A stretch of DNA of 64,000 bases from Escherichia coli (GTDB lineage: Bacteria > Pseudomonadota > Gammaproteobacteria > Enterobacterales > Enterobacteriaceae). Shown here in pieces: positions 22,501 through 50,098 of the stretch (within the stretch, counting starts at the first letter, position 1; each line of letters starts with the position of its first letter). Location of the stretch: assembly GCF_030384885.1 (NCBI RefSeq), contig NZ_CP128613.1; one strand, written 5' to 3'. The notes beneath the pieces are model-generated. The model was not told the DNA's origin and did not search any database. It saw nothing but the letters and a program-made list of their open reading frames with translations. The translations under genes were made by a program, and so were the position numbers.

Positions 22501-22730
22501 ATGCAAAACCTGAACACCCTGTGGTATTCCCCTGGCATTATCACTTTCGCGATTAACCAACAGCCAGACCAGCAAACACGCCACTACAGGCACAGCAAAA
22601 TCCATCAGGCTTGCCACACCCCATGCGTGCGGCTCAAAGCCGCCCCGCCATGGCATATTAATCCGCTTACCATTTTCGAACAGCTGATTGGTTTAGTCCG
22701 GTGTTTCCCTGCTTGCACTTAAAAATGAGC

Positions 22731-22820
22731 GGATGGGAAACTCTCGAAATGGTTCGTCGATATGCTCACCTTTCAGTCAGGCATTTCACCGCGCACGCGA
22801 GCAAAATCAAAGGCACATGA
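22731..22820 (+). pseudogene. 3' remnant of a second P4-type integrase gene
   Basis: Encodes ..[14 protein letters not shown].. then stop, matching the C-terminus ([14 protein letters not shown]) of the intact integrase at 34943-36106; lies directly beside the left att copy. Confidence 0.6.
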
Positions 22821-22851
22821 GGAGAATGTGGTTGACTTAAAAACGAGGAAA

Positions 22852-22913
22852 CTTATTGATTTAAATGGTGCCGATAATAGGAGTCGAACCTACGACCTTC
22901 GCATTACGAATTA
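22852..22913. repeat. left 62-bp direct repeat (att copy; duplicates 3' part of tRNA-Thr plus 16 bp)
   Basis: Identical to 36105-36166 by direct comparison. Confidence 0.8.
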
Positions 22914-23282
22914 TAAGAATCCGTTTCTAATTCAAAGCATTACCACATCAACACTGCGCTCACACGTCCCACCACATCAAAACATGTAAAGCCTTGCAAG
23001 CCATTGTGAGGCCTTATGTGTCTCAGTTTTGTCCCACCTTGTATTACGACTTGCATAACCAATGAAGATAAACGTGACGACAAACGACGCAGCAGTCTTC
23101 TTTTCTTTCACACTTTCCCCACTCAGCATGCATACCTTCTACTATAACTGTAGTGAATGTCTGTTATGAGCGAGGAGCGGACTATCTTTCTGTGCTAAGC
23201 ACAGAAGTTTAAATTAATAAATAGAGATTAAGATGTTTATTGGTTACATTGATATTTATAATTTGATTGCCTTGAAATTCCT

Positions 23283-23322
23283 AAGCCGAATTCATGACGT
23301 CTTCATCACATGAATTCGGCTT
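23283..23322 (-). terminator. hairpin downstream of the 447-aa cargo gene (possible terminator)
   Basis: Perfect 14-bp stem AAGCCGAATTCATG/CATGAATTCGGCTT, 12-nt loop, about 30 nt past the stop codon; no clean U-run. Confidence 0.35.
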
Positions 23323-23351
23323 ATGCATAATACTAAGTTGGTTTTATTAAG

Positions 23352-24695
23352 TCATTTCTTTGCCGCGCTTTTATTGCACTTCTTACAGCCTTCAATCAAT
23401 TTTTCAGTTATTATATAATAATAAGGAATGTAAATGTTTAACCCGCAAGTTTTAATCGAATCGAAAGCAAGAACTTTCACAATGGATTCTTCTCCATCTT
23501 TCTCCATTAGCAATATATCACTTAAAGGCAAATCATTAGGATTGTAAATCCTCACATCGCCAGGCTGTCTTTCATAGGCTTCGATGTCATCACCTGGTTG
23601 GCCATAGGCTAAATGAGTGGCTTTAATCCAGTTTATTGGTTCAGCATTTTGACACCAGGAGATTATTTTTTCTAATTTTTCAGGTGTGTAAGCTTTTACA
23701 TAATCTCCATGTTTTTCACATCTACCTAGTTCTGAAAAATGGCCCAGGGTGTATTCATAAGAATAATCACCAGCAGTCAATGGTAGTCTAAAGTATTGCT
23801 GAGGCAATGCCTTCTGGACTTTGGTTTTACTCAGCAAATTAAAGGTGATATCATAAAGTTGATATAGACAAACACCCTCTCGATCTGGATATCCATAAGG
23901 CTTGATGTCAGAAAGCATCTCAATATCAGAATTATAAACACTTGCATAATCATCACTTCCAAACATGAAAAAACCTTTTGATAGAATGAATATTGCATTA
24001 GGAAGAACGTTTTTTTCAAAATTCTGCGAGTGAGTTTTTATTTCTTGTACTATGTCCATCCAATCCATATCAGTATCATAGGCGAAGATAATTCCAAAAC
24101 CATTAGTCTGAATTCTCTCCTCTGAATGTATAAATATGTTCTGATTTATACCATGTTTCTTTAGTTTTTTGAATGAGCGGATATTTTCGAAAGCACTTTT
24201 CAGTTCTTTTTTTGTTAGTTTTGACTTAACCTGAATCACACCATAGCAGTACTCCACAGGTAAAACCTCAAAAATTTCCTGTCGCTGCATAAGCGAAAAT
24301 GAATTAAAAGCATCATAAAAAAGAATGTCGATTTCATTACTGAGATGTCCTGAGGTTGACGCTACACGGACACTTGATTTTGAGATGGCATAGCTTTGCG
24401 GTAAGAGTTTATTTTCATTGAAAAAGCATCTTAAGAGTTCCTCTCTGACAGTACCAACATCTCTTGGATGCTTAATATCTTTCGATATTTCAAAATCTTG
24501 AAGCATTTTCCTCTGTAAGTGAATGAACTCCCTTTCAAGACCATAAAATTCTTTATCTTTAGATCTCAGTTTGCTTGCACGAGAAACTTGATCGGATATC
24601 CATTCCTTTGTGCGAGACTCTCTCTCAGCAAAATCATCACGTTGTTTTTTTACAGCACCGGTCAAGCGTTTTCTTGTGTTTTCATTATCGGACAT
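23352..24695 (-). CDS. hypothetical protein, low GC; possible PD-(D/E)xK / Mrr-like nuclease fold
   Basis: 447-aa ORF; motif ..SNEIDILFYD..(about 25 aa)..YGVIQVKSKL reminiscent of a D...(E/Q)xK nuclease core; AT-rich relative to neighbours; no confident family assignment. Confidence 0.55.
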   Translation of the reverse strand: MSDNENTRKRLTGAVKKQRDDFAERESRTKEWISDQVSRASKLRSKDKEFYGLEREFIHLQRKMLQDFEISKDIKHPRDVGTVREELLRCFFNENKLLPQSYAISKSSVRVASTSGHLSNEIDILFYDAFNSFSLMQRQEIFEVLPVEYCYGVIQVKSKLTKKELKSAFENIRSFKKLKKHGINQNIFIHSEERIQTNGFGIIFAYDTDMDWMDIVQEIKTHSQNFEKNVLPNAIFILSKGFFMFGSDDYASVYNSDIEMLSDIKPYGYPDREGVCLYQLYDITFNLLSKTKVQKALPQQYFRLPLTAGDYSYEYTLGHFSELGRCEKHGDYVKAYTPEKLEKIISWCQNAEPINWIKATHLAYGQPGDDIEAYERQPGDVRIYNPNDLPLSDILLMEKDGEESIVKVLAFDSIKTCGLNIYIPYYYIITEKLIEGCKKCNKSAAKK

Positions 24696-25214
24696 AAATT
24701 AACCTTAAGTTGATAAGTTTTGTGGTGAATTTATAAAGCCTGAGGGATAAACATTTATAGTCTATAAGTTACTATTTATTTGAGATAGTAAGCCAATTTT
24801 ATTAGATGAAGAAACGTTCATAACCTCCTCAACTACGTTTCAATCGGCAACATCGGAGAAGTACACTTTGACAATATATAGCATATTGAAGCAGCTGTAA
24901 CTTAGAGCGCGTACACTCAAGATTTCCCGCTGCGGTGATGGCGGACGACTGCGTTTGATAACTCATTTCCCTCACCAACTATCGGACCTGTTCCTGATTG
25001 ATTATCACATTATAATGTGAGCAATGTCCGCTCCTAGCACATAGCAGTTCTAGAGACAATGGCGTAAAGTCATGGAGAATCGGTGGGAGGATATTCAGTT
25101 TCATTCATGCCGAAATACGGTAAAATCTATAACAGATAGAAATCATTCAATATTCGCACTATCAGAAGCTGGCCAGCCAACCGCGCACGATTTTGCATAC
25201 GACATGCTACGGTT

Positions 25215-25814
25215 TCATTTATCTCCGACCGGAAACTTCTTATACAGTGTCGATACACCAACATCATAGATGATCTCCACCTTCTGGCGAGGAACGCCTG
25301 ATGCAATTAATCGCCCGGCCTGCGCCCTTTGTTCTGGTGTAAGTTTGGGACGACGTCCACCAATTCGTCCCTGTGCGCGAGCAACTTCCAGTCCAGCTTT
25401 TGTTCGTTCAACAATCAGTTCTCGTTCCATTTCAGCCAGGGCACCCATCACATGAAAGAAAAAACGCCCCATCGGTGTGCTGGTATCAATAGCATCCGTC
25501 AGGCTGCGAAAATTAACGCCACGTTCGCGCAACTCCTCAACCAGAATGACCAGATGGACAAGCGTGCCGGGACCGGGTTTATTCAGCGCTTCAATCAGGC
25601 GATCGCGCTGGTCAAAGCAGTCATCTCCCACCACATAAGCTGTGATGGACGGGCGGAAAGTGACTTTTCCCAGATCTTCGGTATAGGGCTTGTCGCGGTT
25701 CGGGTATTCATGTGTTTCCACACGGCGACCGGTTCCCGCACTTTCTTCTTCAACCTTAAACGGCACACCTCGAAATGACGCATCCTGAAGCCTGTCTTTC
25801 CACGTCATATACAC
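25215..25814 (-). pseudogene. chimeric ORF: C-terminal half of a Pin/Gin/Hin-family serine DNA invertase fused to a Mu-N-like (DNA circularisation protein) N-terminus
   Basis: C-terminal about 110 aa (VEELRERG..FRSLTD.IDTSTPMGRFFFHVMGALAEMERELIVERT..GGRRPKLT..) matches invertase C-terminus and HTH; catalytic Ser-containing N-terminus missing; first about 85 aa (WKDRLQDASFRGVPF..GRRVETHEYPNRD..EDLG) resembles phage DNA_circ_N proteins. Confidence 0.6.
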
Positions 25815-25869
25815 TCCGAAAATAAAAAAGCCACCTATTAGAAGGTGGCCTTGTAATGAATTTTATTAA

Positions 25870-26400
25870 TTAGCGAGTCAGAAACAACGAATCTTTATAC
25901 TTTTGCTGTTGTTCATTTAAATACTTAGCTGTTTCATCGCTGGCAAATGGAAATATTACCGTATTTTTAGGCATGGTAATTTCTTTTTTGTCCAGCGTCA
26001 GAGTAAACATAGGAACATACTGAGCAGAGTAACGCACCGCAGAAACGAGCTCTAGTTTAGACTCTTCAATAACACTTAAATTATCCAGGCTAACTTTCTC
26101 TTCATCTTTTTTCTTTGACGCATTTAAAGTTTTTATTACTTTATTTAATTTCTCCTGAAAATCCTCCTTAAAGTTTTCAGGATTGCCGTCGACAACAAGA
26201 ATCTGTTCACCCTGATTATCTGGAAAAATAATCTTTGCACTTATCAATTTATTTTCTTTATAAACATCACCAAGTTTTATGGCTCCTCCAGATAACTGAA
26301 TAATATGTTCATCTTTAAAGGAGATGTTGCCAGAGATTATGAGAGATGAAAAAATAGCCGCTGCTCCAAGAATTACACTTGCTGTGATATAGCCTTTCAT
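25870..26400 (-). CDS. hypothetical membrane-anchored/secreted protein, low GC
   Basis: 176-aa ORF with N-terminal hydrophobic segment MKGYITASVILGAAAIFSSLIISG; Lys/Glu-rich; AT-rich. Confidence 0.5.
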   Translation of the reverse strand: MKGYITASVILGAAAIFSSLIISGNISFKDEHIIQLSGGAIKLGDVYKENKLISAKIIFPDNQGEQILVVDGNPENFKEDFQEKLNKVIKTLNASKKKDEEKVSLDNLSVIEESKLELVSAVRYSAQYVPMFTLTLDKKEITMPKNTVIFPFASDETAKYLNEQQQKYKDSLFLTR

Positions 26401-26491
26401 TTTTCGCCTATTAACATTTTTCTAAATGTGCATTAATTCTATCACTCTATTTATGACTTACAACCAGCAATACATGTGAGGGGAATCCTGG

Positions 26492-27623
26492 CTACCAAAA
26501 TCGGGTATAGCCAACATCGTGATTTATATCAATGCCACTGGAGCGTGTTTCCGTAACCCGCATACCTGGTGGCATATTTATAAATGATACCTTGATCTCA
26601 CCATCAACTTTTGGCGCGGTAGCTTTATTAATCATGAAGGGATTCGGGCCTGTGGCATCGGAGGCGTTGTTTGCCTGAGCCGGATCCACCGCCGGATAAG
26701 GAGTGTATCCCCGTGCCGGTATTCCCGTCTTCGATATTGTTGAAGGTGGCGCGATCGGTGTTCTGCACCATGTGCAACGGCACCCGGAACAGACGACAGA
26801 TTTCTTCAAGCTGAAACTTGCGGGTTTCCAGGAACTGGCTGTCCTCGGCGTTCAGCGCCATCGACTTCCAGTCCAGCCCCATCTCAAGGATCATCGGGCG
26901 GTGAGCATTACCAAGCCCGGTGTGACGCTCCTCAAAATCTTTCTTCAGGCGCTCATAAGCCTGATCCGACAGCGTCTGTTCTGTACGCAACACACCCGAC
27001 GTCACCGCGCCATTGCTGAACAGTCTGGCCCCGTGCTCTTCGGTCGCAGCTGCCAGCGATATTGCCTCACGGGCATAGGCGATGGGATTCAGTCCCACCA
27101 GACCGTCCAGCGTCAGCGTGCGCACATGCCAGATATCCTCCTGGCTCAGTACATCCGTGGAGCCATCCGGGAATGTGACCTGATAGACCGGCTCCCAGCT
27201 ACTGTTAAGCTTCGGTACCACACAGCCGGGATCGACGGGCAGCAGTTCAGCCACTTCGCCAAATGCTTTCACTTTGTAGGCGTAAAAGTTTCCCCGCAGG
27301 CACAGACAGGTGACCACCAGCTCCCAGAACTCCTGCGGCGTCATATAGCCATTGGGATGCGTGGAGATCAGCTTATGCAGACGTTCGCCAGTGGCTCTCT
27401 GCTTCAGGCTGCCGTTCAGGTGATACAGGTTGCAGGGCAACATCCCGACCGACTCCGCCAGCACCCTGACACAGGAAAAAACCGCCGTCAGTCGCATGGC
27501 CCGCTGGCTGCTGATCTGCTTTCCGGTATAGGTGTCGTAGGACAACCCGATGGCATCCGCCAGCTCTGCTGGCGTGGTCACCGGTGCGTCACTTTTTCGT
27601 TGAAATAATCCCGAAAAGAACAC
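26492..27623 (-). pseudogene. phage portal protein (HK97-family), frameshifted and 3'-truncated
   Basis: 331-aa ORF with portal-like N-terminus continues in another frame as a 105-aa ORF (26492-26809); normally followed by protease/capsid genes, which are absent. Confidence 0.6.
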
Positions 27624-27805
27624 TATTTACCTCCGCCGACAGACAGCTGTGTACGATCGAGATATCGCGCCACCAGCCACGACCAGAACAGGCACAGCGC
27701 CCCGGCAACAACAAAACCCGCCGGGGGATAAATCAGCCAGGCACCATATGCCAGCAAAAGCGCACCCAGCACGCCCACCAGAGGCGCGAGAATCAGCATG
27801 ATCAT
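27623..27805 (-). CDS. small hydrophobic phage protein
   Basis: 60-aa ORF, two hydrophobic stretches, between terminase and portal. Confidence 0.3.
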
Positions 27806-27816
27806 AATTACCTCAG

Positions 27817-29550
27817 TTAAAGCGAGCGGATCCCGTAGGACTCAATGTGGTCAGACAGCGTGTCTTCTTTCTCGTACAGCATGGCTCTGCCAACCGCCAT
27901 AATCAGCGCAACTGCACCATCGATTTTGTTTTCCGCCTGCTCTTTGACGGGTTTCACCACATCATCGTTACCCGGAATGGTTTTGCCGACCACGTTGCCG
28001 ATACACCAGGTCATGATGGGATTGCCGTCATGATGAAAGCGCCCCGATTCAATTGCCGCTTCCAGCTCTTTCATCGGGTCGGACATGTTGGTGTAGTTCT
28101 GAATGATAGTGATGGGGTTCAGGTCTTCATCAGCAAGGTCATGTGACAACCCGGTCGCCCCGAAGGGGTCGATGGGTGACTCACTGACCGGGCTGATTTT
28201 GTTCGCCGCTTTGGCCTCCTCGAGGATGTAGCGATAATCCACCTCCGCACCATCGGTAACGGTCAGAACGCCCATTTCCACCCATTTCTGAAAGCGTTCG
28301 GCTGTCCGTCGATCTTCATTTTTCTCGACGCTGTACACCGTGTCATACGGTACCCAGAAACGCGGGGCCACACTGTAGTAATGCGTTTTACCGTCAATCT
28401 CGCGGGTATAAAGTCGCGCCATGCTGTTCATATCCAGCTTACGCGCCAGGTCAAAGGCCAGAATGCACGGCTGCCCCTCGAACTGCTCAAGAGTCAGTGA
28501 TTTATCCTCGCATCTCTGCCAGCTCACCAGGTTGAAATACGCCGAACGCGCCGACACCCAGATATTGAGGTGTTTTGTTTTAAAGACGTTTGCCAGACGG
28601 GCGTTATTTTTCGCACGTTGCTGCTGGCTTAACAAAAACTCGCGATAAACCGACACACCGATATTCGGGTTAGCTTTTTCAAGTACCTGCGGGTCGGTCC
28701 AGTCGTCGCCTTCGTCAACGGTATAGATGATCCCGAACAGTTCATCGTTGGGCACCGAGCCGTTGAGCATCTCGATGACTTCCCGCCGTTTGTCGTAGCA
28801 CGGCCCCTCAATGTTGTACCCGGCGGTGGTAATGGCCCACATCAGTGGCTGGCGTCGCGCCCCCATCCCGGTAAGCATCGTGGTGTAAAGCGCATCTGTG
28901 GCGTGCTCGTGATATTCATCCACCACCGCACAGTGGGGTGATGAACCATCACCGGGGTTACCGATCAGCGGTTCAAACCGCGCACCATCCTCCGGACGGT
29001 TCATGTTTGAGGCGTTAACCTCAATCCCGAACGCTTCCGTCAGCATGGGTGTGCGTTTACACATCAGTCGTGCCGGACGAAAGACTTCCCATGCCTGTTT
29101 CTCCGTCGTGGCACCGGAATACACTTCCGCGCCGAACTCGTTATCACAGGCAAAACAATACAGGGCGACACCGGCAGAGATTGCCGATTTGCCGTTCTTA
29201 CGGGGGATTTCGGTATACACCTCACGGAAGCGGCGCAGCCGGGAGCCTTTATTGACCCAGCCAAACGCGCAGCAGATCACAAAGAGCTGCCACGGCTCCA
29301 GCGTGATGGGCATCCTCTTAAATGCCCACTCACCCTTGGTGTGCGGCAACAGCTGAATAAATTTCGCGGCCCGTTCAGCCAGGTCCTTGTCGAAGCGGTA
29401 ACGAAACGACTTACTTTTTTCCTCCATCAGGTCATCAAGATGGCGCTGGCAGGCCTGAATCACAAACTGGCAGGCCACAATCTTTCCGTGCACGACATCA
29501 CGGGCATACTGATTGGCAGCATTTACGTTGGGGTAAGATTTCCGGCTCAT
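27817..29550 (-). CDS. phage terminase large subunit
   Basis: 577-aa ORF with ATPase Walker-like region and C-terminal nuclease region; overlaps small-subunit stop (ATGA). Confidence 0.9.
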
Positions 29551-30050
29551 GATTCGATGATTTTCAGAAACGGGTTAGTGGCTTTCTTCTGCCCCGCCAG
29601 GCCAATCAGACGCTGGCGGCTGCTGGGGTCGAGTCCGAGCATTGCCCCCGTACTGCTCATCTCGGACTCCTGTTCTTTTTTGGCGGTCAGCTCCGGATTT
29701 TTGACCATACCGCCCATTGCACCGGTGATGGTGTTGCCCTGTCTGGCAATATTTTTCACGGCACGTCGCCAGAACTCGTAGGCCACGCACCACCGCTCAA
29801 GCACCGCGAGGTCAGTCACGCACAGCAGGCCCTGACCGCAGAGTTCTTTAGTTGTCAGTTGCCACATGATCGTGGCGAGAGGGAGATCTTCTTCAGCGAA
29901 CCACTCCGGTGGCTCAACACCTTTGATGGGCGTAAAAACAGGTTCATCTTTATTCAGGGCTCGCTTGCCGGGGTTTCCGGCCAGCGCCTTGCGCGCCGTT
30001 GGCTTGGGGCGACGCCCGGAACGCCCCGCCGTTCCAGCCATATGCGGCAC
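29547..30050 (-). CDS. phage terminase small subunit (P27-like)
   Basis: 167-aa ORF, basic N-terminus [22 protein letters not shown], immediately upstream of large subunit. Confidence 0.8.
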
Positions 30051-30166
30051 TCCTGGTTAAATTTCATTTTTCGCGGGTATAAAAAAACGATGGGGCGGGC
30101 AGTCCGGAAGACGTCAGGTCACAGGGATTTGACCCGCCCCTCCCCTCTGGCAGTGGGAACTGGTTC

Positions 30167-30517
30167 TTACTTCAGCCGTTCACGGGCCGTCTTCGCCTTA
30201 TGACACGGCCAGCACAAACTCTGCAGATTACTGTCGACATCAGTGCCGCCATGCGATTTAGGGATGATGTGGTCAACGGTCTTCGCCTCACGCACCACAC
30301 CAGCACGCAGACATAACTGACACAGGCCTTTGTCACGCTTCAGGACACGCGCGCGGATACTGTCCCACTTCGAACCGTAGCCGCGCTGATGACGGGATTG
30401 TCCAGGTTTGTATTGCTTCCAGCCTTCGCTTTTGTGGCTTTCGCAGTAGCCTGAAGGGTCCGTGGTTGTAAAGCGGCAGCCGCGAACACGGCAGGCTTTT
30501 GGGGTTCGTGGGGGCAT
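30167..30517 (-). CDS. HNH endonuclease (phage packaging-associated)
   Basis: 116-aa ORF with CxxC...HIIPKSHGG..D..NLQSLCWPCH HNH motif. Confidence 0.85.
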   Translation of the reverse strand: MPPRTPKACRVRGCRFTTTDPSGYCESHKSEGWKQYKPGQSRHQRGYGSKWDSIRARVLKRDKGLCQLCLRAGVVREAKTVDHIIPKSHGGTDVDSNLQSLCWPCHKAKTARERLK

Positions 30518-31041
30518 ATGTACTCCAATGAAGAAACCAGCGAAATAGCTGCCTTCATTCGTAGTAAACCTTTTTCATCAACGCAGTAATGGATTCTTTG
30601 AAGAGTCGCGATCAATACAACTCACTAATGGAGAGACTTGTCTCACGCATGAGACAAATTTCCCGTTTGATTTAATGGACACTATAGAGGGACAGAATGC
30701 CTTCCTCACTCGAATCACATCAATTAAGGAGGTTCAACATGTTTCATTCCACAAGTCATCAGGCTGTAATTATGGCAGCATCAGTTTGTGCCAAAGACCT
30801 TTTCCGCTTCACTTTGAGCCTGATTCATTTCTACCTGACCGGCTCGCCTCTATCTTTTTAATCCCCGCTTTATCCAAATTGCATTGCCATAATGCCGACA
30901 ACACACTGACATTCAAATCCAGACTACCTCCAATAGTCTGACCGTACACCTATATAGTTTTAATTTTCATCAATCCATTTAACTATCGTTTAATTGTTGT
31001 CACATAGGATTCTGCCGTTTTTAACAATGCAGGATAATAAG

Positions 31042-31335
31042 ATGAAAAAAATGTTGTTTTCTGCCGCTCTGGCAATGCTTATTACAGGATGTGCTCAACA
31101 GACGTTTACTGTTGGAAACAAACCGACAGCAGTAACACCAAAAGAAACCATCACCCATCATTTCTTCGTTTCGGGAATTGGACAGGAGAAAACTGTTGAT
31201 GCAGCCAAAATTTGTGGCGGCGCAGAAAATGTTGTTAAAACAGAAACCCAGCAAACATTCGTAAATGGATTGCTCGGTTTTATTACTTTAGGCATTTATA
31301 CTCCGCTGGAAGCGCGTGTGTATTGCTCACAATAA
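31042..31335 (+). CDS. bor: Bor/Iss-family outer-membrane lipoprotein
   Basis: 97 aa from internal Met; lipobox LITGC; closely matches recollection of lambda Bor. Confidence 0.9.
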   Translation: MKKMLFSAALAMLITGCAQQTFTVGNKPTAVTPKETITHHFFVSGIGQEKTVDAAKICGGAENVVKTETQQTFVNGLLGFITLGIYTPLEARVYCSQ

Positions 31336-31366
31336 TTGCATGAGTTGCCCATCGATATGGGCAGCT

Positions 31367-31828
31367 CTATCTGCACTGCTCATTAATATACTTCTGGGTT
31401 CCTTCCAGTTGTTTTTGCATCGTGATCAGCCTCTCTCTGAGGGTGAAATAATCCCGTTCAGCGGTGTCTGCCAGTCGGGGGGAGGCTGCATTATCCACGC
31501 CGGAGGCGGTGGTGGCTTCACGCACTGACTGACAGACTGCTTTGATGTGCAACCGACGACGACCAGCGGCAACATCATCACGCAGAGCATCATTTTCAGC
31601 TTTCGCATCAGCTAACTCCTTCGTGTATTTTGCATCGAGCGCAGCAACATCACGCTGACGCATCTGCATGTCAGTAATTGCCACGTTCGCCAGCTTCAGT
31701 TCTCTGGCATTTTTGTCGCGCTGGGCTTTGTATGTAATGGCGTTATCACGGTAATGATTAACCGCCCATGACAGACAGACGATGATGCAGATAACCAGAG
31801 CGGAGATAATCGCGGTTAATCTGTTCAT
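31367..31828 (-). CDS. Rz: i-spanin Rz
   Basis: 153-aa ORF, N-terminal TM, coiled-coil; closely matches recollection of lambda Rz. Confidence 0.9.
31426..31608 (-). CDS. Rz1: o-spanin Rz1 (embedded in +1 frame of Rz)
   Basis: 60-aa ORF with lipobox VVGC and proline-rich PPPPP segment, fully inside Rz. Confidence 0.8.
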
Positions 31829-32301
31829 ACCTCAATCTCTCTGACCGTTCCGCCCGCTTCTTTGAATTTTGCAATCAGGCTGTCAGCCTTATGCTCGAAC
31901 TGACCATAACCAGCGCCCGGCAGTGAAGCCCAGATATTGCTGCAACGGTCGATAGCCTGACGAATATCACCGCGATCAATCATCGGTAAAGCGCCACGCT
32001 CTTTAATCTGCTGCAATGCCACTGCGTCCTGGCTTTTGGGGGAGAAGTCTTTCAGGCCAAGCTGCTTACGATAGGAATCCCACCAACGGGAAAGAAGCTG
32101 GTAGCGCCCGGCTGCTGTTGATTTGAGTTTTGGGTTTAGCGTGACAAGTTTGCGAGGGTGATCGGAGTAATCAGTAAATAGCTCTCCGCCTACAATGACG
32201 TCATAACCATGATTTCTGGTTTTCTGCCGTCCGTTATCCGTTCCTTCTGACCATGCCACCATATCGAGGAAAGCTTTACGCTGAGGATTAAGATTTTGCA
32301 T
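31825..32301 (-). CDS. R: endolysin, lambda R-type lytic transglycosylase
   Basis: 158-aa ORF closely matching recollection of lambda R (..[31 protein letters not shown]..). Confidence 0.9.
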
Positions 32302-32605
32302 TTTTCACCCCTGTCAGTCGTTCCCAGAAGTACGTCAGTGCAACCGAACCCATCGCACCACTAATCCCCGCTGTCGCGAGAATCATGTAAATACTGAATC
32401 CACTTTCGATGCTGATCAGGCCACCAATAACACCGGTGAATCCTGATACCACTATCTGAGCCAGAGCATTTATCCAACTCCACGTTGCTTTACTCTGCTT
32501 CACATCTATCAGGTAGCGGACTAGACCGCCCCAACCTGCGATGATCAGCAAAACGAGCCAGAACGCTCCGGCAAGGCTCTCTTTTTCGTGCATATGAATA
32601 GCCAA
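32288..32605 (-). CDS. putative holin
   Basis: 105-aa ORF with hydrophobic helices, overlapping start of endolysin; not lambda S-like. Confidence 0.55.
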   Translation of the reverse strand: MAIHMHEKESLAGAFWLVLLIIAGWGGLVRYLIDVKQSKATWSWINALAQIVVSGFTGVIGGLISIESGFSIYMILATAGISGAMGSVALTYFWERLTGVKNAKS

Positions 32606-32711
32606 TGTTTCGCCGCCGACAAAAGGCCGGGACGTTAAATGTCAGAAATCAGGCTCACGGGGTAATTTAACGACAAAGCACGGAGTTGATGCTCCCCGCA
32701 AGCCTGGAATA

Positions 32712-32734
32712 AAAAAGCCAGCATGTAGCTGGCA
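32712..32734 (-). terminator. intrinsic terminator of short late-promoter transcript (tR'-like)
   Basis: On minus strand GCCAGCTACATGCTGGC hairpin followed by TTTTTT, between Q and the holin. Confidence 0.5.
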
Positions 32735-32914
32735 ACAGAGGGTTAAGCAATATCAACTCAACAGCTGAAGACACCCTGGCTGGGGTACATTGGAAGGATA
32801 CTCACCGCCCAGAAACAGAAAAGCCCAAGGCTTTAAACCTCGAGCTTGAATTTGGATTACTGCCAGTGCGTACAACATTGGCAAAATATCAGATTTATAT
32901 GAAATATATGCTTT

Positions 32915-33604
32915 TTAATCCAGTTTTGCAATATTTTGCTGTGAAAATGTCGCCTTTTGTTTTGAACGTGTTCTCGTTAGAAGCAATAAAGCTTCGCTAT
33001 CAAGCTGTAGAAAAATGTGCTTCATTGCAACCCAGCGTTCAGTGAATGTCTCAGACCAGTTTTTTGATGTCACTCCCACCAGTGACGCCAGTTCCTGGTA
33101 TTCATAAGCCTCACGCCCTGCCAGTTCGCTCTTCACATCCTGTGCCGCCAGCCAGATCAACTTCTTCAGGCGTTCCAGTGTCTTACCTGCAATTTTTCTG
33201 GTACCCAACAGAGTCTTAAACTCGCTCCATGCCCACTGCGTTATGGCAACCTGATGCTCCCAGCGAATATTTTCACTGTAACTCCACAGCAACCATGCTT
33301 TCTGATGCTCATCGAGAGACAGAACAGCGCGGCGCCATGAAGAGGTTGAAAACTCGACCGGACTGATCAGGGCGACAGATGAACCTTTTGCGTACGACTG
33401 TTTACCGGAAATCGGCAGATTATCCAGCATAATAATCTTGCCAGTTACCTCATCCAGAATGCGTCGCTTCTTTCGTTTGTATGTACCAGTATCAAATTGT
33501 GCATGCTCCAGCCAGGCTTCAAGCTGGCCTTTCGTTGCTCCGCTCAAGTCAGCGGTAGCCACCATGAGTTGCTCGCGGACATATTGTAAATATTGGGTAT
33601 TCAT
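32915..33604 (-). CDS. late-gene antiterminator Q-like protein
   Basis: 229-aa ORF directly upstream of the lysis cassette and downstream of rusA; position-based, not lambda-Q-like in sequence. Confidence 0.55.
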   Translation of the reverse strand: MNTQYLQYVREQLMVATADLSGATKGQLEAWLEHAQFDTGTYKRKKRRILDEVTGKIIMLDNLPISGKQSYAKGSSVALISPVEFSTSSWRRAVLSLDEHQKAWLLWSYSENIRWEHQVAITQWAWSEFKTLLGTRKIAGKTLERLKKLIWLAAQDVKSELAGREAYEYQELASLVGVTSKNWSETFTERWVAMKHIFLQLDSEALLLLTRTRSKQKATFSQQNIAKLD

Positions 33605-33737
33605 GCGGCAGCTCCTTTCAGTGTTTTGGCGTAATTCCTCAGTATTCGGTAATCGGTCAAAACAGAACCGGGGAAACGATATAAGCGCAGATGCCCCCAG
33701 CGGTGGCGAAGAAGTTCTGCCATATAAAACTCAAACA

Positions 33738-34100
33738 TCATTCATTCCCCATTTCGGTGATGGTCAGTTCCAGCCTCCCACCTTTGGTAACAGGCATCTT
33801 CACAACACGGTAATCAACGACCTGAGCATCATCCAGCCAGAAACCTGCTTTAGTGAGTGCGTCAAAAGCGGCTTTTTGCAGATTATCCAGGTCACGGCGA
33901 CGGCGATCCGGCATGTGGCACTCAATGCGGATTTTCACAGGCATAGCCAGGCCGATATCCAGCATTGCGTTTTTAATGATTCGGGCGACGTTATCGCGGT
34001 ATGCCTGCCCCTCTGCGCTGACGTGCGTGCGCCCGCGATTATGGCGGTAATAGCGATTATTGCTCGGAGGCCAGGGTAATGTGATGCTGTAGGTATTCAC
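33738..34100 (-). CDS. rusA: Holliday junction resolvase RusA
   Basis: 120-aa ORF matching recollection of RusA (..[31 protein letters not shown]..). Confidence 0.85.
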
Positions 34101-34387
34101 GCCTTAATAACCCCCTCTTTCAGCCAGATAACCTGTGTTCTCGCCATACCTTCCAGCGCGCATTCTTTTGCATATGCAGCATCGACAAAATGTGTGCGGC
34201 GGTCGATTTCGTCGTGGCAGGCAGAACATGCAATGGTGGCAATCAGGTCTGGCGGTTTGGTACCGGTGCCGCACAATCCAGTCAGCCGGATATGTGCCAG
34301 TACAGACGTTTCAGGGTTGCCATTACATACGCCAGGGATTCTTACCTGGCATTCCCGACTACGCGCTGCTTTTCTCAAATCAGCCAT
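34097..34387 (-). CDS. phage protein, Cys-rich (DUF1364/YbcO-like)
   Basis: 96 aa from [10 protein letters not shown]; four Cys; nin-region position. Confidence 0.5.
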
Positions 34388-34550
34388 GATTCCTCCTTGC
34401 TGCCAGTCGCAACCATTTTTTATCAACCAGGCTGGCGGTATATCCGAGCAGTGTTGGTATTTCGGAAGGCTTCAGCTCCGGTTTACGCTTACGACGATTT
34501 GGTACTCTGTAGATGTGTCCGTTCATGACACGAATAAGCGGTGTAGCCAT
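34380..34550 (-). CDS. NinE-like small protein (56 aa)
   Basis: [56 protein letters not shown]; stop overlaps next start; not in ORF track. Confidence 0.45.
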   Translation of the reverse strand: MATPLIRVMNGHIYRVPNRRKRKPELKPSEIPTLLGYTASLVDKKWLRLAARRNHG

Positions 34551-34831
34551 TACGCCTCCTGTTTGTCGCGGAGCTGCTGGAACTCGCAGCTCTGCGGAAT
34601 AGTCAGGTGGCAGCCAATATTCATCGCCCAGGCTTCAACCTTACACAGGAAGACATACATCTCTCCGGTATCAAGATCGGAGGTATGGCGTAACGACTGG
34701 ATAGTGGTGATATCACCGGTTACGACATCAACCAGGTCTTTGGTTTCATAACCGAGATATGTGTGTTTGAGAGCATCTTTTACCCAAGCTGGAGTGGCGA
34801 ACGTTTTACAGGCAACACGCAAAGACCCCAC
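34550..34831 (-). CDS. phage nin-region protein, possibly 5'-truncated
   Basis: 93-aa ORF abutting the integrase upstream region. Confidence 0.35.
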   Translation of the reverse strand: MGSLRVACKTFATPAWVKDALKHTYLGYETKDLVDVVTGDITTIQSLRHTSDLDTGEMYVFLCKVEAWAMNIGCHLTIPQSCEFQQLRDKQEA

Positions 34832-34942
34832 TAAACCAAAATCTCCTTACCTCACAACGCGACAAGCCTGCATTGCGGCGCTTCAGTCTCCGCTGCATAC
34901 TATCAAGGTGAGCGCGGGTGATGGCATAACAGAGGAAAGAAA

Positions 34943-36106
34943 ATGTCACTCTTCCGCAGAAGTGAAATATGGTACGCCAGTTTCACATTGCCGAACGGTA
35001 AAAGATTTAAACAGTCTCTTGGAACAAAGGACAAAAGGCAGGCGACAGAGCTCCATGACAAGCTAAAGGCTGAAGCATGGCGGGTCAGCAAACTTGGTGA
35101 AATACCTGATATGACGTTTGAGGAAGCGTGTGTCAGGTGGCTCGAAGAGAAAGCACATAAGAAATCACTGGACGATGACAAAAGCCGGATCGGATTCTGG
35201 CTTCAACATTTCGCAGGGATGCAACTAAGAGACATCACTGAATCAAAAATTTATTCAGCGATGCAGAAAATGACAAACCGGCGTCATGAGGAAAACTGGA
35301 AACTCAGGGCAGAAGCATGCAGAAAAAAAGGGAAACCTGTTCCAGAATACACGCCAAAACCAGCGTCCGTTGCAACGAAGGCTACGCATCTTTCATTTAT
35401 AAAGGCCCTGCTAAGAGCCGCAGAGCGTGAATGGAAAATGCTGGATAAGGCACCAATTATTAAAGTGCCTCAACCGAAGAATAAACGTATCCGCTGGCTG
35501 GAGCCTCATGAAGCACAAAGGCTGATTGATGAATGTCCGGAGCCATTAAAGTCTGTTGTTGAATTTGCACTGGCAACAGGCTTAAGACGCTCGAACATCA
35601 TCAACCTTGAATGGCAACAAATAGACATGCAGCGCCGGGTGGCATGGATAAACCCGGAAGAGAGTAAATCAAACCGCGCAATTGGCGTTGCGCTGAATGA
35701 TACTGCATGTCGCGTATTGAAAAAACAAATCGGGAATCATCACCGTTGGGTATTTGTATACAAGGAAAGCTGTACCAAACCAGACGGAACGAAAGCGCCA
35801 ACGGTCAGGAAGATGCGGTATGACGCAAACACAGCCTGGAAAGCGGCGCTGAGACGAGCAGGTATTGATGATTTCAGATTTCACGACTTGAGACACACCT
35901 GGGCAAGTTGGCTGGTTCAAGCCGGAGTCCCGTTGTCAGTGTTACAGGAAATGGGAGGCTGGGAGTCTATCGAAATGGTTCGTCGATATGCTCACCTCGC
36001 ACCTAATCACCTTACCGAACATGCACGGCAAATAGACTCGATCCTGAACCCATCGGTCCCAAATTTGTCCCAGTCAAAAAATAAGGAAGGTACTAATGAT
36101 GTGTAA
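34943..36106 (+). CDS. int: tyrosine integrase (P4/DLP12 IntD-like)
   Basis: 387-aa ORF with HDLRHT...YAHL catalytic tail, ending 15 bp before the tRNA 3' end. Confidence 0.9.
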
Positions 36107-36166
36107 CTTATTGATTTAAATGGTGCCGATAATAGGAGTCGAACCTACGACCTTCGCATTACGAAT
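36105..36166. repeat. right 62-bp direct repeat (att copy overlapping tRNA-Thr 3' end)
   Basis: Identical to 22852-22913. Confidence 0.8.
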
Positions 36167-36196
36167 GCGCTGCTCTACCAACTGAGCTATATCGGC
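36121..36196 (-). tRNA. thrW: tRNA-Thr (anticodon CGU)
   Basis: Reverse complement reads GCCGATATAGCTCAGTTGGTAGAGCAGCGCATTCGTAATGCGAAGGTCGTAGGTTCGACTCCTATTATCGGCACCA; cloverleaf-compatible, CCA end. Confidence 0.9.
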
Positions 36197-36310
36197 CCTG
36201 AAAGGACATGTTCACGAGCGTGAATCACGGTGGACAAGGTTAAAACTAACCGGGCGATGCGTCAATGGCCTTGTGAATCAAATGGCTACTTTTGCATCAC
36301 CCGGTTTTAT

Positions 36311-37564
36311 TTACGCACGAATGGTGTAATCACCAATGCCGATCCACTTGTAAGTGGTCAGTGCTTCCAGCCCCATTGGGCCACGCGCGTGGAGTTTTTG
36401 TGTGCTTACCGCCACTTCCGCACCCAGACCAAACTGGCCGCCGTCGGTAAAACGCGTAGAGGCGTTAACGTAAACAGCGGACGAATCCACTTCGTTAACA
36501 AAACGCTGGGCATTACGCATATCGCGGGTCAGGATCGCATCGGAGTGTTGCGTACCGTGTTCACGAATATGGGCGATGGCATCGTCAAGATCGCTGACGA
36601 TTTTGACGTTCAAGTCTAATGACAGGAACTCATCGTCATACTCTTCGGCTTTAACAGCCACCACCTTCGCGGGGCCTGCCTGCAACTGCGCCAGCGCAGT
36701 TGCGTCAGCGTGTAATGTCACGCAGCTTTCCGCCATTTGCTTGCTTAATGCGGGCAGGAAGCTATCTGCGATGTTTTTATTTACCAGCAACGTTTCTACC
36801 GTATTACACGTGCTCGGGCGCTGAGTTTTCGCGTTGACAATCACTTTCAATGCTTCAGCGATCTCTGCACTTTCATCAACGTAAATATGGCATACGCCTA
36901 TACCACCTGTGATTACCGGAATCGTCGACTGTTCGCGGCACAGTTTATGCAACCCAGCCCCGCCGCGTGGGATCAGCATGTCGATGTATTTATCCATACG
37001 CAGCAGTTCACTGACCAGCGCACGGTCAGGATTATCAATCGCCTGCACGGCACCCGCCGGTAAACCGCAGGATTTCAGGGCGTCCTGAATCACCGCCACC
37101 GTTGCAGCGTTAGTGCGACAGGTTTCTTTGCCGCCGCGCAGGATCACCGCGTTACCGGTTTTCAGGCACAGTGAAGCAACATCAACCGTCACGTTCGGGC
37201 GCGCTTCATAAATTACACCAATCACCCCCAGCGGTACGCGACGGCGTTCCAGACGCAGGCCGCTGTCCAGCACCCCGCCATCAATTACCTGCCCCACTGG
37301 ATCGGCGAGGTTACATACCTGGCGCACATCATCGGCAATGCTTTTCAGCCGTGCGGGCGTCAGTGCCAGGCGGTCAAGCATCGCTTCGCTAAGGCCATTG
37401 GCACGCGCGTCAGCAACATCCTGGGCATTAGCATTGAGGATGCTTTCGCTTTGTGCTTCCAGTTCATCGGCGATTTTTTCCAGCACGCGATTTTTTTCGC
37501 GACTGGAGAGTTGCGCTAAATTATACGAGGCTTGCTTCGCGGCAATGCCCATTTGTTCCAGCAT
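36311..37564 (-). CDS. proA: gamma-glutamyl phosphate reductase
   Basis: 417-aa ORF, recognised ProA sequence. Confidence 0.95.
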
Positions 37565-37574
37565 CGGCTGCTCC

Positions 37575-38678
37575 TTAACGGGTAATCATATCATCACGGT
37601 GAACGGCAACCGGGCCGTATTCATATCCCAGTATTGCATCAATTTCTTGCGAGTGATGTCCGGCAATACGGCGTAATGCATCGCTGTTGTAACGACTGAC
37701 GCCGTGGGCGATATCGCGACCTTCAAGGTTGCAAATGCGAATGACTTCACCACGCGAGAAGTTGCCGGTTACGCTTTTAATGCCTTTCGGCAACAGGGAG
37801 CTGCCGCGTTCAAGAATGGCGGCGGTTGCCCCTTCATCTACCGTGATTTCACCCGCAGGCGGCGCACCGAAAATCCAACGTTTGCGGTTTTCAAGCGGAG
37901 TCGCCTGGGCATGGAACAGCGTACCGACGGAAATACCTTCCATCACATCACCAATGACACCCGGCTTACTGCCCGCGGCAATAATGGTGTCGATACCCGC
38001 ACGGCAAGCCACGTCAGCGGCCTGCAATTTAGTGCTCATGCCGCCGGTTCCAAGACCTGAAACGCTATCACCGGCAATCGCGCGCAGTGCGTCATCAATG
38101 CCGTACACATCTTTAATCAGTTCTGCCTGCGGATTGCTACGCGGGTCAGCGGTATACAAACCTTTTTGATCGGTCAGCAACAACAGTTTATCGGCACCTG
38201 CCAGAATCGCCGCCAGTGCCGAAAGGTTATCGTTATCGCCGACTTTAATCTCTGCAGTAGCGACAGCATCGTTCTCATTGATTACCGGAACGATGTTGTT
38301 ATCGAGCAGTGCACGCAAGGTGTCGCGGGCGTTCAGGAAGCGTTCACGGTCCTCCATATCAGCACGAGTTAGCAGCATCTGCCCGACGTGAATACCATAA
38401 ATCGAAAACAGCTGTTCCCACAGTTGAATCAGTCGACTCTGCCCTACCGCCGCCAGAAGTTGTTTCGAGGCGATAGTCGCTGGCAGTTCCGGGTAACCCA
38501 GGTGCTCACGTCCGGCGGCAATCGCACCCGACGTCACAATTACAATCCGATGCCCGGCGGCATGTAGCTGCGCACACTGGCGAACAAGTTCAACGATATG
38601 GGCACGGTTCAGGCGGCGCGATCCGCCTGTTAGCACACTGGTGCCGAGTTTTACCACCAGCGTCTGGCTGTCACTCAT
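37575..38678 (-). CDS. proB: glutamate 5-kinase
   Basis: 367 aa from [16 protein letters not shown]; ORF-track start lies upstream. Confidence 0.95.
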
Positions 38679-38965
38679 GATTCTCTGCCATTCAATTTTA
38701 GGGAAAATGATATCAAACGAACGTTTTAGCAGGACTGTCGCCGGTTGCCAACCATCTGCAAGCAAAGCATGGCGTTTTGTTGCGCGGGATCAGCAAGCGT
38801 AGCGGCAGTTGTTTACGCTTTTATTACAGATTTAATAAATTACCACATTTTAAGAATATCATTAATCTGTAATATATCTTTAACAATCTCAGGTTAAAAA
38901 CTTTCCTGTTTTCAACGGGGCTCTCCCGCTGAATATTCGCGCGTTAATTAAAATCAGGAATGAAA

Positions 38966-40021
38966 ATGAAAAAGAGCACTCTGGCATTAGTGGTGATGGG
39001 CATTGTGGCATCGGCATCCGTACAGGCCGCAGAAATATATAACAAAGACGGTAATAAACTGGATATCTATGGCAAAGTTAAAGCCATGCATTATATGAGC
39101 GATAATGACAGTAAAGATGGCGACCAAAGTTATATTCGTTTTGGTTTTAAAGGCGAAACACAAATTAACGATCAACTGACCGGTTATGGTCGCTGGGAAG
39201 CAGAGTTTGCCGGAAATAAAGCAGAGAGTGATACTGCTCAGCAAAAAACGCGTCTTGCCTTTGCCGGGTTGAAATATAAAGATTTGGGTTCTTTCGACTA
39301 TGGTCGTAACCTGGGGGCGCTGTATGACGTGGAAGCATGGACCGATATGTTCCCGGAATTCGGCGGCGATTCCTCCGCGCAGACCGACAACTTTATGACC
39401 AAACGCGCCAGCGGTCTGGCAACGTATCGGAACACCGACTTCTTCGGCGTTATCGATGGCCTGAACTTAACCCTGCAATATCAAGGAAAAAACGAAAACC
39501 GCGACGTTAAAAAGCAAAACGGTGATGGCTTCGGCACGTCATTGACATATGACTTTGGCGGCAGCGATTTTGCCATTAGTGGGGCCTATACCAACTCCGA
39601 TCGCACCAACGAGCAGAACCTGCAAAGCCGTGGCACGGGCAAGCGTGCAGAAGCATGGGCAACAGGCCTGAAATACGATGCCAATAATATTTACCTGGCA
39701 ACTTTCTATTCTGAAACGCGTAAAATGACGCCAATCTCTGGCGGCTTTGCCAATAAGACGCAGAACTTTGAAGCAGTCGCTCAATACCAATTCGACTTTG
39801 GCCTGCGTCCATCGCTGGGTTATGTCTTATCGAAAGGGAAAGATATTGAGGGCATCGGTGATGAGGATCTGGTCAATTATATTGATATCGGTGCTACATA
39901 TTATTTCAACAAAAATATGTCAGCGTTTGTTGATTATAAAATAAACCAACTGGACAGCGATAACAAATTAAATATTAATAATGATGATATTGTCGCGGTT
40001 GGGATGACCTATCAGTTTTAA
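38966..40021 (+). CDS. phoE: phosphate-starvation outer-membrane porin
   Basis: 351 aa from [21 protein letters not shown]. Confidence 0.95.
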
Positions 40022-40029
40022 TGGAGATT

Positions 40030-40056
40030 GCCGGATGCGGCGCATCCGGCACTTTT
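40030..40056 (+). terminator. phoE terminator
   Basis: GCCGGATGC-GGC-GCATCCGGC hairpin then ACTTTTC. Confidence 0.5.
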
Positions 40057-40059
40057 CAC

Positions 40060-40518
<459 letters not shown>

Positions 40519-41763
40519 TTAACACAATCGTTTTTCGATCCAGCTCGTGATTTCCTGAAGACCTTTGTCAAAATTCCGATACACGGGGTTAAACGGAATC
40601 TCTAACAATTTACCATCAGCAGATGATGAGGTGATTAAGCGAGAGTCCTCTTCCGGGCTGAACGGATCGTTCTTCCAATAGCCTGATAACATTGGCGTTG
40701 GGCAGCGACGGCCCAGCAATCCTTGCACTTTTAATGAATAACGATTCAGTTCCACACGCAACGCTTCATCGGAAGCATCATGCATCCCCAAACGACTCGC
40801 CAGAACGTCAAGATACATTTCCGGCACCTGTTGCTGGCACTTAAAATCACTCAACAGGGTATGAACTACCGGACCAAGACAGGCAACCGCTTTCAGACGC
40901 GGCGATTCAAGATATGCCAGACGCACAGCAACGTTAGCGCCAAAACGGAAACCAAAGGCCGCGACACGGGTGTGATCCACCCACGGGACGTTAGGCAGCG
41001 CCTTTAAGACGTGCTGATGCAACAGGCTGGAGTCCTGGGTGAGCTTCCATTTTGAAGAAAAGCCCACCGACGGCATATCAATAGTCAGCATCGCAATGCC
41101 GCGCGGGGCAAAATAACGTTCATACAGACTGTAATAATCCGTCTGCATCGCATCCAGACCACCACACATTAATACCGTCGGGAACGGGCCATCGCCTTTC
41201 GGCATATGCAAAAAGCCGGTGATGGGCGCACCGCCTGGTACGGTAAACTCCATCTGCCGCATCGTGCCCGGCAGACGTTGGGCGGCCTCTTCATAGGCAC
41301 GGTTTGACAAAGCCTGCGCTTGCTCGGCCAGGTCATCCCCTTTCAGATGAGGATAGGCGGCAATGTTGTACAACGTGGCCGCATGCAGCCAGTGACGACC
41401 ACTGAGTTGTGGATCTTCTTCCGCACAAGCTTTTTGTTGCCACACCATCGCCTGGGTGGCCCATTCATAAATCCAGTTGCCGCCGCGGTAGCCAATCACC
41501 GTATCGTATAAATCATCGTCGGTACGTTCAGCATCGCTCATCACAATACGCGCCTGAACGTCGAGGATTTCACGTGGGTCAATGCCGCGCCAGATCCACA
41601 TCAGACGGTTTATCATGCGATACCAGTGGGGGATGGTTTTACCATCAAGGGCCGACTGCACAGGCGGTTGTGCGCCGTGATTAAAGCGGCGGACTAGCGT
41701 CGAGGTTTCAGGATGTTTAAAGCGGGGTTTGAACAGGGTTTCGCTCAGGTTTGCCTGTGTCAT
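40519..41763 (-). CDS. frsA: fermentation/respiration switch esterase
   Basis: 414-aa ORF recognised. Confidence 0.95.
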
Positions 41764-41854
41764 GGATGCAGCCTCCAGAATACTTACTGGAAACTATTGT
41801 AACCTGCCTGAAGTTAAAAAGAACAACGCCCGGCAGTGCCAGGCGTTGAAAAGA

Positions 41855-42313
41855 TTAGCGACCGGAGATTGGCGGGACGAATACGACGCCCATATCCCAC
41901 GGTTGTTCAATCCAGGTATCTTGTGGGATATCAACAACATAATCATCAACCAGCGGACGACCTGCCGGTTTAGCGAAGATGGTGACAAAGTGCGCTTTTG
42001 GATACATTTCACGAATCGCAACTGCAGTACCGCCGGTATCCACCAGATCATCAATAACGATGAAGCCTTCGCCATCGCCTTCTGCGCGTTTCAGCACTTT
42101 AAGCTCGCGCTGGTTGTCGTGATCGTAGCTGGAAATACAAACGGTATCGACATGACGAATACCCAGTTCACGCGCCAGTAACGCACCCGGTACCAGACCG
42201 CCACGGCTTACGGCAATAATGCCTTTCCATTGTTCAGAAGGCATCAGTCGGCTTGCGAGTTTACGTGCATGGATCTGCAACATGTCCCAGGTGACGATGT
42301 ATTTTTCGCTCAT
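41855..42313 (-). CDS. gpt: xanthine-guanine phosphoribosyltransferase
   Basis: 152-aa ORF recognised. Confidence 0.95.
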
Positions 42314-42573
42314 GTGAAGTGTCCCAGCCTGTTTATCTACGGCTTAAAAAGTGTTCGAGGGGAAAATAGGTTGCGCGAGATTATAGAGATCTGACGCACT
42401 AAAAACCAGTATTTCACATGAGTCCGCGTCTTTTTACGCACAGCCTCTCCCTGACGCGGGATAAAGTGGTATTCTCAAACATATCTCGCAAGCCTGTCTT
42501 GTGTTGACAACATTTTCTGCTAACCCTGTGACCTGCAATACTGTTTTGCGGGTGATCGACAAGGAGACTTAAC

Positions 42574-44031: not shown

Positions 44032-44041
44032 TTACAATAAT

Positions 44042-44071
44042 GTCCACGCCTGCGGGCGTGGACTACTGTTT
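44042..44071 (+). terminator. pepD terminator
   Basis: GTCCACGCC-TGCGG-GCGTGGAC hairpin then T-rich tail. Confidence 0.5.
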
Positions 44072-44078
44072 GAAGCCA

Positions 44079-44321
44079 ATGGCTATCTATATCGAAATAA
44101 CAAAACATTATGAAACTCATGAAAAGGTCGCATATTTATATAGCTGCGACCATATTTCATGGGGAGAATTTCTGATCACCAAAGAAAGTTTTGCGCTGGA
44201 ATCCGTGAAAGAACTTAAGGGTGAAAAGCAGAATTTTTATATGTTCAGAGCCTGGGGCAAAGTCAGGAAAACATACTTAGCCACGGGAGAATTTCCCCAG
44301 GAAACATGTTACGCCGCTTAA
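44079..44321 (+). CDS. hypothetical small protein (low confidence)
   Basis: About 80-aa AT-rich ORF after pepD terminator; no motif. Confidence 0.2.
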   Translation: MAIYIEITKHYETHEKVAYLYSCDHISWGEFLITKESFALESVKELKGEKQNFYMFRAWGKVRKTYLATGEFPQETCYAA

Positions 44322-44329
44322 AGTCAGAA

Positions 44330-44854
44330 TCATTTTTTCACGCGTTTTACATTTACCATTTTAGCATTACGCCTGCACCACATGGCAATGGCGGCAGCTA
44401 CTAATGCCAGTTCCAGTAAAAACGACCAGTGTAATAAAAAATTGAGCCACCACGGATGATGTACCGCCGTAATATGAAAGAGTGCAAAGGGTTGGTTAAC
44501 GAAAGGCATCAACCACCAGATATCACCGACCAGCGTATCAAGCAACAAATGCACAATACCATTCAGGCAAAACACCACGCCCAGCCACGCCGGAAGTTTA
44601 TTCTTCGCAATTGCGGCCCAGACTAATGTCGCCGCCAGCAGAGCAAACCATAATAATGGCCAATGAGACGGGTAAAGATGATGATGTCGTTGCCCGTTAT
44701 CCACCAGATAACACCAGAAGAGATCAAAATCGGGTGCAACGGCCCCGACTAAGCCAATAACCATCGCCCACCGCGCATGACGAGAAATCAGCGGTAGGCG
44801 TTTCACTAAAGTACAAGTTATTAAATATCCAGCCGGAAGATGACCGATAAACAT
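44330..44854 (-). CDS. membrane-bound metal-dependent hydrolase-like protein (YdjM/DUF457-like)
   Basis: Hydrophobic His-rich ORF; start chosen at Met with AAAGGA RBS (alternative Met at 44869). Confidence 0.55.
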   Translation of the reverse strand: MFIGHLPAGYLITCTLVKRLPLISRHARWAMVIGLVGAVAPDFDLFWCYLVDNGQRHHHLYPSHWPLLWFALLAATLVWAAIAKNKLPAWLGVVFCLNGIVHLLLDTLVGDIWWLMPFVNQPFALFHITAVHHPWWLNFLLHWSFLLELALVAAAIAMWCRRNAKMVNVKRVKK

Positions 44855-46667: not shown

Positions 46668-46671
46668 GTAT

Positions 46672-50084: not shown

Positions 50085-50098
50085 TTTCGCGCTCCCGC

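Follow-up and report, generated by a model that had tools for sequence, protein, structure and literature searches.

An apparent frameshift in a prophage portal gene is very probably the scar of an 8,237-bp deletion in a decayed element at thrW of Escherichia coli

What had been described in an earlier note as a portal gene broken by a frameshift is, with high confidence, the scar of an 8,237-bp deletion (measured against intact relatives) which joined the front of the portal gene to the end of a tape-measure gene in a decayed prophage at thrW. The scar lies at 26728/26729 of the 64-kb stretch of E. coli DNA that was analysed (the window), and the same element carries two further deletions. 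The correct record for the locus would be a portal pseudogene truncated by deletion together with an orphan 3' fragment of a tape-measure gene, and not a portal with a frameshift that might vanish on resequencing; the element is to be classed as defective through three deletions. Taken by itself the portal lesion brings no new biology and its value is mainly one of annotation, while the element as a whole is one more example of stepwise decay among e14/SfI prophages, for which the breakpoints are exact and a sister genome has the site empty.

As had been reported, two open reading frames are in place on the minus strand, one of 331 aa (26628-27623) and one of 105 aa (26492-26809), and the ORF list has them overlapping in different frames. 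The 331-aa product belongs to the HK97-family portals, with a match to PF04860 at E=2.5e-81 (273.8 bits, cut-off 39.1) and a score for TIGR01537 of 187.8 bits that passes the curated family cut-off of 112. The truncation of the portal was also confirmed, as the match covers only profile positions 2-251 of 321 in PF04860 and 3-266 of 343 in TIGR01537, the latter being covered from 3 to 343 by the intact relative, so that the 331-aa frame does not qualify as a full-length portal. The portal of the L1PEag1 prophage (413 aa) is matched essentially without difference by residues 1-299, and thereafter the similarity is gone. The portal gene remnant (26729..27623, minus strand; PF04860, TIGR01537 and blastn) comprises 895 nt, equal to codons 1-298 of 413 and one additional nucleotide, and past the junction the portal frame runs through tape-measure DNA for 33 nonsense codons to a stop at 26628. 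With 298 portal residues, 33 nonsense residues and the last 28% of the protein lost, the 331-aa product is best read as a pseudogene, and the extent of the truncation points to a loss of portal function.

The 105-aa reading frame, which had been taken for the continuation of the portal, showed no similarity to the intact portal in an alignment (best E=1.3) and gave no match in Pfam or NCBIfam. Instead, its residues 28-105 are the end of a tape-measure protein, matching positions 533-610 of 610 in the one from the L1PEag1 prophage (76 of 78 identical, 97%; E=9e-56), and PHROGs assigned it to phrog_17727, tail length tape measure, at positions 370-440 of 443 and hence at the C-terminal end of the profile. 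The tape-measure gene remnant (26492..26728, minus strand) holds the last 78 codons and the stop and is shifted by +1 against the portal frame, and the retained tape-measure DNA amounts to 238 nt. Residues 1-27 are similar to neither portal nor tape measure; this stretch (26729..26809, minus strand) is portal DNA read out of frame from a TTG, and it forms the first 27 codons of the mechanically derived frame without being a gene segment. Judged by these alignments, the 105-aa frame is an orphaned tape-measure C-terminus with a chance upstream extension. The two frames are not consecutive parts of one protein. A small insertion or deletion near 26700-26810 that splits one portal gene in two would agree with two frames overlapping on the same strand, in adjacent registers and at precisely this place, but the second frame is tape measure and not portal, portal codons 300-413 are missing from the window, and the DNA alignment jumps by 8,237 bp at 26728/26729. 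The change of frame is this deletion junction and no indel in a continuous gene, and we rejected the single-gene frameshift as next to impossible.

Prophages of E. coli L1PEag1, HZ13, PSS-16 and C11 served as intact references for the deletion sizes. In a three-way alignment of the window with both sides of the L1PEag1 prophage, the window agreed with the tape-measure side as far as ...CCCGTC and with the portal side beginning at TCTTCGAT..., and only the dinucleotide TC (26728-26729) is common to both. This first junction (J1, 26728..26729) corresponds to positions 21177 (window 26729) and 29413 (window 26728) of the L1PEag1 contig, and blastn aligned window 26728-30739 with L1PEag1 29413-33426. 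The missing DNA measures 8,237 bp against both L1PEag1 and HZ13, a size that, like those of the other deletions, is relative to relatives which are 97-99% identical mosaics and not to the direct ancestor; the search turned up no direct ancestor in which this very prophage is still intact. Collinear blastn alignments to three or four intact relatives agreed on the breakpoints and on the 8,237-bp gap. Megablast against complete E. coli genomes and phages gave the same picture, with homology to portal, ymfR and terminase starting at 26728 and homology to tape-measure, hypothetical and DNA-circularisation genes ending at 26729. In an intact relative the two flanks map, collinearly, to points far apart, and in the window they meet with nothing inserted. 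Positions, deletion sizes and the recurrence of the junction described below are direct observations, and the shared dinucleotide suggests microhomology-mediated illegitimate recombination as the mechanism.

According to the annotation of the relatives, the block deleted at J1 contained the 3' end of the portal gene, the prohead protease (HK97 family) and major capsid protein, the head-tail connector and closure proteins, on the tail side the terminator, sheath, tube and a tail assembly protein, three small proteins with no assigned role (one of them DUF2635), and tape-measure codons 1-532, which are 87% of that gene. Relocation of these genes within the window was considered and rejected, since neither blastn nor tblastn detected any of them elsewhere in the 64 kb. 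The earlier claims that protease, capsid and tail genes are missing downstream, and that the prophage is incapable of building particles, are supported, the portal being truncated and the lost head and tail genes absent from the whole window.

The earlier note had also left room for a sequencing error, to be recognised by a continuous portal frame on resequencing. The exact 331-aa chimeric product was found on contigs of four sequencing runs (ERR2987533, SRR18593988, SRR20168666 and SRR17241515; Logan assemblies), and their identity to the window is 99.99-100% across J1 and, where they reach that far, also across both other junctions (J2 and J3, see below). Over 9.9-16.6 kb, with J1 and J2 included, the window is matched at 100% identity by GCA_017755465.1 and GCA_036346665.1, both from NCBI, and J1 itself is 100% identical in all six independent assemblies. 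A false junction from a collapsed or mis-joined assembly might have been suspected from its rarity, as neither GTDB species representatives nor metagenome contigs contained the junction 34-mer and J1 was spanned by none of 5,426 complete E. coli genomes. Against this stand the identical junction and neighbouring sequence in assemblies from different read sets, and the mere 2 nt common to both sides at the junction, which leave no repeat able to cause a mis-join. Because an identical junction was obtained in independent assemblies of different read sets, a sequencing or assembly error is excluded for practical purposes at the level of assembled contigs, and we regard an artefact as extremely improbable; exact-protein look-ups were what led to its rejection.

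Two more deletions, of about 7.15 kb and 12.2 kb, had gone unmentioned, as had the tape-measure and DNA-circularisation stubs and an intact 176-aa reading frame downstream of the portal fragment. At J2 (25553-25556), which shows a GATG microhomology, 7,144-7,167 bp are missing compared with the relatives, a stretch that comprises the genes for baseplate and tail fibre as well as the 5' portion of pin. The result is an in-frame chimera (25215..25808, minus strand; 197 aa by gene callers), identified by Pfam, blastp and alignment of the junction, in which residues 1-85 of the DNA-circularisation protein are followed by residues about 73-184 of the Pin invertase (its C-terminal 112). Pfam reported DNA_circ_N, Resolvase (profile 79-144 only) and HTH_7; the chimera keeps the HTH of Pin and its catalytic N-terminus is gone. 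At J3 (34807..34809), 12,246 bp are missing versus the intact thrW prophage of PSS-16, where blastn aligned window 26728-34809 with contig positions 10229-18311 and window 34807-36563 with 30555-32311. This deletion removed the recombination (exo/bet/gam), immunity (repressor) and O/P-like replication genes, which together are the whole early region, and fused what remains of ybcN (first 66 codons lost) to what remains of an Xis-like HTH gene beside int (first 30 codons lost). J3 was present on at least 11 contigs. When the chimeric J2 and J3 proteins were used as queries, intermediates with only one or two of the three deletions were not found, and only the same allele was recovered.

The complete defective prophage spans 13.3 kb (22850..36166). 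At either end lies a perfect direct repeat of 62 bp (22850-22911 and 36105-36166), obtained by a repeat search, and the pair forms the att sites. The right repeat overlaps tRNA-Thr(CGT), thrW (36121-36196, minus strand), a full-length integrase gene precedes it (34943-36106, plus strand), and proA, proB and phoE lie beyond this side of the prophage. The element is thus inserted in tRNA-thrW beside proA with the 3' end of the tRNA duplicated as the 62-bp repeats. Phage SfI likewise integrates at tRNA-thrW next to proA, which makes the site in the window the thrW site of SfI and its relatives (PMC3636060). Together the three deletions (8.2, about 7.15 and 12.2 kb against the relatives) account for a loss of 27.6 kb, and adding them to the remaining 13.3 kb gives approximately 41 kb, which is how large an intact member of the family is. 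Among complete genomes, that of E. coli 2013C-4282 comes closest; it has 2 differences within window 1-22911, shows essentially no divergence over 36105-48761, and carries a single copy of the 62-mer (48188-48249 of its contig), representing an empty thrW site. As this genome is near-identical and yet empty at thrW, the remnant is a precise att-bounded insertion that is polymorphic between near-identical backbones. The lineage of 2013C-4282 may never have been lysogenised, or the element may have been lost via Int or the 62-bp repeats. Just outside the left repeat, an 85-nt remnant of the 3' end of another integrase gene (22723-22807; 73% identical to the resident int) was observed. It was left by an earlier integration at thrW and is present also at the empty site of 2013C-4282.

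The genes outside the deletions are in good condition. The packaging module (27623..30517, minus strand) consists of the YmfR membrane protein (27623-27805), the large terminase (27817-29550), a P27-family small terminase (29547-30041) and an HNH endonuclease (30167-30517), all on the minus strand and all full length by Pfam and tblastn. It is followed at 31042..34550 by full-length genes for a Bor/Iss lipoprotein (plus strand), Rz/Rz1, lysozyme, holin, the Q antiterminator, YlcG, RusA, DUF1364 and NinE, which were assigned by tblastn against the PSS-16 prophage, the annotation of the relative, and gene calls with Pfam on a matching contig. In tblastn with the PSS-16 prophage proteins, YmfR, both terminases, HNH, Bor/Iss, Rz, lysozyme, holin, Q, YlcG, RusA, DUF1364, NinE and the integrase all aligned free of gaps and stops, in agreement with the earlier statement that terminase and lysis genes are retained.

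Cargo genes were retained as well. A 447-aa DUF6602 protein is encoded at 23352-24695 (minus strand; about 34% GC; PADLOC and Pfam), and its N-terminus carries a PD-(D/E)xK/NucC-like nuclease domain (PADLOC PD_DExK E=2e-27, NucC E=1.7e-16), making it a candidate stand-alone defence nuclease. The gene occupies the att-proximal cargo position, where Shigella phages of the same family carry gtr genes for O-antigen modification. The 176-aa frame (25870..26400, minus strand; about 34% GC, with a hydrophobic N-terminus by eye) is intact and sits between the tape-measure and DNA-circularisation genes, the same place as in intact relatives. It gave no match in Pfam, NCBIfam or PADLOC, its sole assignment being phrog_5485 (E=3.8e-108), a family without an assigned function. 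In related prophages the corresponding slot was seen to hold the 176-aa frame (about 173 genomes), a 'PH domain' or 'OB-fold' gene, another hypothetical gene, or nothing.

Among known systems, the closest parallel is found in e14 of K-12, which belongs to the same phage family (about 97% DNA identity in portal, ymfR and terminase), has a portal 5' fragment fused by deletion to a tail-module gene, and has likewise kept remnants of the Pin invertase and tail fibre. In contrast to the window element, e14 occupies another chromosomal site with its own integrase (intE/xisE), joins 408 nt of portal to baseplate J where the window joins 895 nt to the tape-measure gene, and has kept its immunity region but a large terminase without N-terminus, whereas in the window the immunity region is lost and the terminase intact. 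Portal, ymfR and terminase share 97-98% DNA identity with SfII, SfIV, SfI and ST64B and 87% with phiP27, and this packaging and morphogenesis module is collinear with intact E. coli prophages, which, together with the thrW site, assigns the element to the lambdoid myovirus prophages of the SfI/SfII/SfV/e14 type. For SfI, cos packaging and morphogenesis genes organised like those of e14, SfV, ST64B and phiP27 have been described (PMC3636060). SfI, SfII, SfIV, SfV, ST64B and phiP27 are complete inducible phages of 38-41 kb, whereas the window element lacks 27.6 kb. The prophages of HZ13, L1PEag1, C11 and PSS-16 are collinear with every retained segment at 97-99.9% identity but have full head, tail, baseplate and early gene sets; the one in PSS-16 also resides at thrW/proA, and the intact one in HZ13 has the same cargo end with DUF6602 and pinE. 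A further remnant, located next to ssrA in CFSAN061772, resembles the window in that the 3' part of a tape-measure gene is fused straight to a portal fragment, and the intact 176-aa frame and a DNA-circularisation stub come next, but it differs in the lengths joined (408 nt of portal and 978 nt of tape measure), in its site and in an internal deletion of the large terminase. Both independent remnants, the one in the window and the one in CFSAN061772, have kept the 176-aa frame with the stubs of both flanking genes.

Phages of the SfI/SfII/SfV/ST64B/e14 group combine a head of the HK97 type and a contractile tail with lambdoid early genes, and the decay of prophages by large deletions is well known. 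The history that we propose starts with a temperate phage of this group, about 41 kb in size, which would have entered the chromosome at thrW, beside proA. An illegitimate recombination at a microhomology of 2 nt would then have taken out 8,237 bp and placed tape-measure codon 533, in the +1 frame, behind portal codon 298/299, and two further clean deletions (about 7.15 and 12.2 kb) would have completed the decay. What the window contains is ordinary prophage decay as in K-12 e14, and a kind of feature that is already known.

Recombination between two co-resident prophages, rather than a deletion within one, could also have produced J1, and the best matches on both sides do differ: 25553-26729 is 99.9% identical to C11, whereas 26728-34809 is matched best by PSS-16 at 97.1%, in a family that is strongly mosaic (PMC3636060). 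Order and orientation of all segments are nevertheless those of a single intact prophage, e.g. that of HZ13, and with 2 nt shared the event would be illegitimate either way and the loss of head and tail genes the same outcome; we consider an origin from two prophages unlikely. A further reading is an element that is maintained in a functional state, being helper-dependent, mobile or kept for its cargo, with the portal fragment a by-product and not the result of random decay, and we hold this to be improbable too. It would explain why int, both att sites, terminase, HNH, the lysis cassette and the cargo are held and all non-deleted genes intact, why presence and absence differ between backbones only 2 SNPs apart in 22.9 kb, why the low-GC cargo (DUF6602/NucC-like nuclease, phrog_5485 frame and Bor/Iss) was spared throughout, and why the CFSAN061772 remnant independently kept the phrog_5485 frame between its stubs. 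However, a regulator, a replication gene and a capsid-redirecting gene are all absent, the Xis-like gene is truncated, and the early promoters that normally drive Q, and thereby the late operon, would have been deleted; loss through the 62-bp repeats and a lineage that was never lysogenised would explain the empty site of 2013C-4282 equally well. The element also does not conform to a phage satellite (PICI, cf-PICI or P4-like), as 22850-36166 contains no regulator, replication or helper-redirecting genes and the early region is deleted at J3. In a wider form, the polymorphism between backbones about 1e-4 per site apart, the retention of int, both att sites and the intact terminase/HNH and lysis genes, and the three spared cargo genes, among them the membrane-like phrog_5485 frame, could be taken to indicate a remnant that was recently active or under selection, with deletions shaped to keep a possibly anti-phage cargo and with excision or mobilisation by a related phage still within reach; this we regard as doubtful. 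Simple decay by three deletions within one prophage is the reading that we prefer.

Comparison of the remnants revealed a shared breakpoint that concerns e14 and CFSAN061772 rather than the window. Both keep exactly the first 408 nt of the portal (within 2-4 nt of microhomology), equivalent to window position 27216, with the breakpoint at contig position 5001 in K-12 e14 and 7798 in CFSAN061772 and with different partners, baseplate J and tape measure respectively. The flanks to their right share just 97.3% identity, which does not exceed the average within the family, so that nothing points clearly to recent common descent; the survey contained almost only the K-12 type. The shared breakpoint may reflect a deletion hot spot or an old shared event. 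Outside the prophage, the window contains a lateral-flagella (Flag-2) cluster from 48762 to 64000, for which the best E. coli matches reach only 94.5% identity; in 2013C-4282 this cluster is deleted, with lafU beside a truncated flhA.
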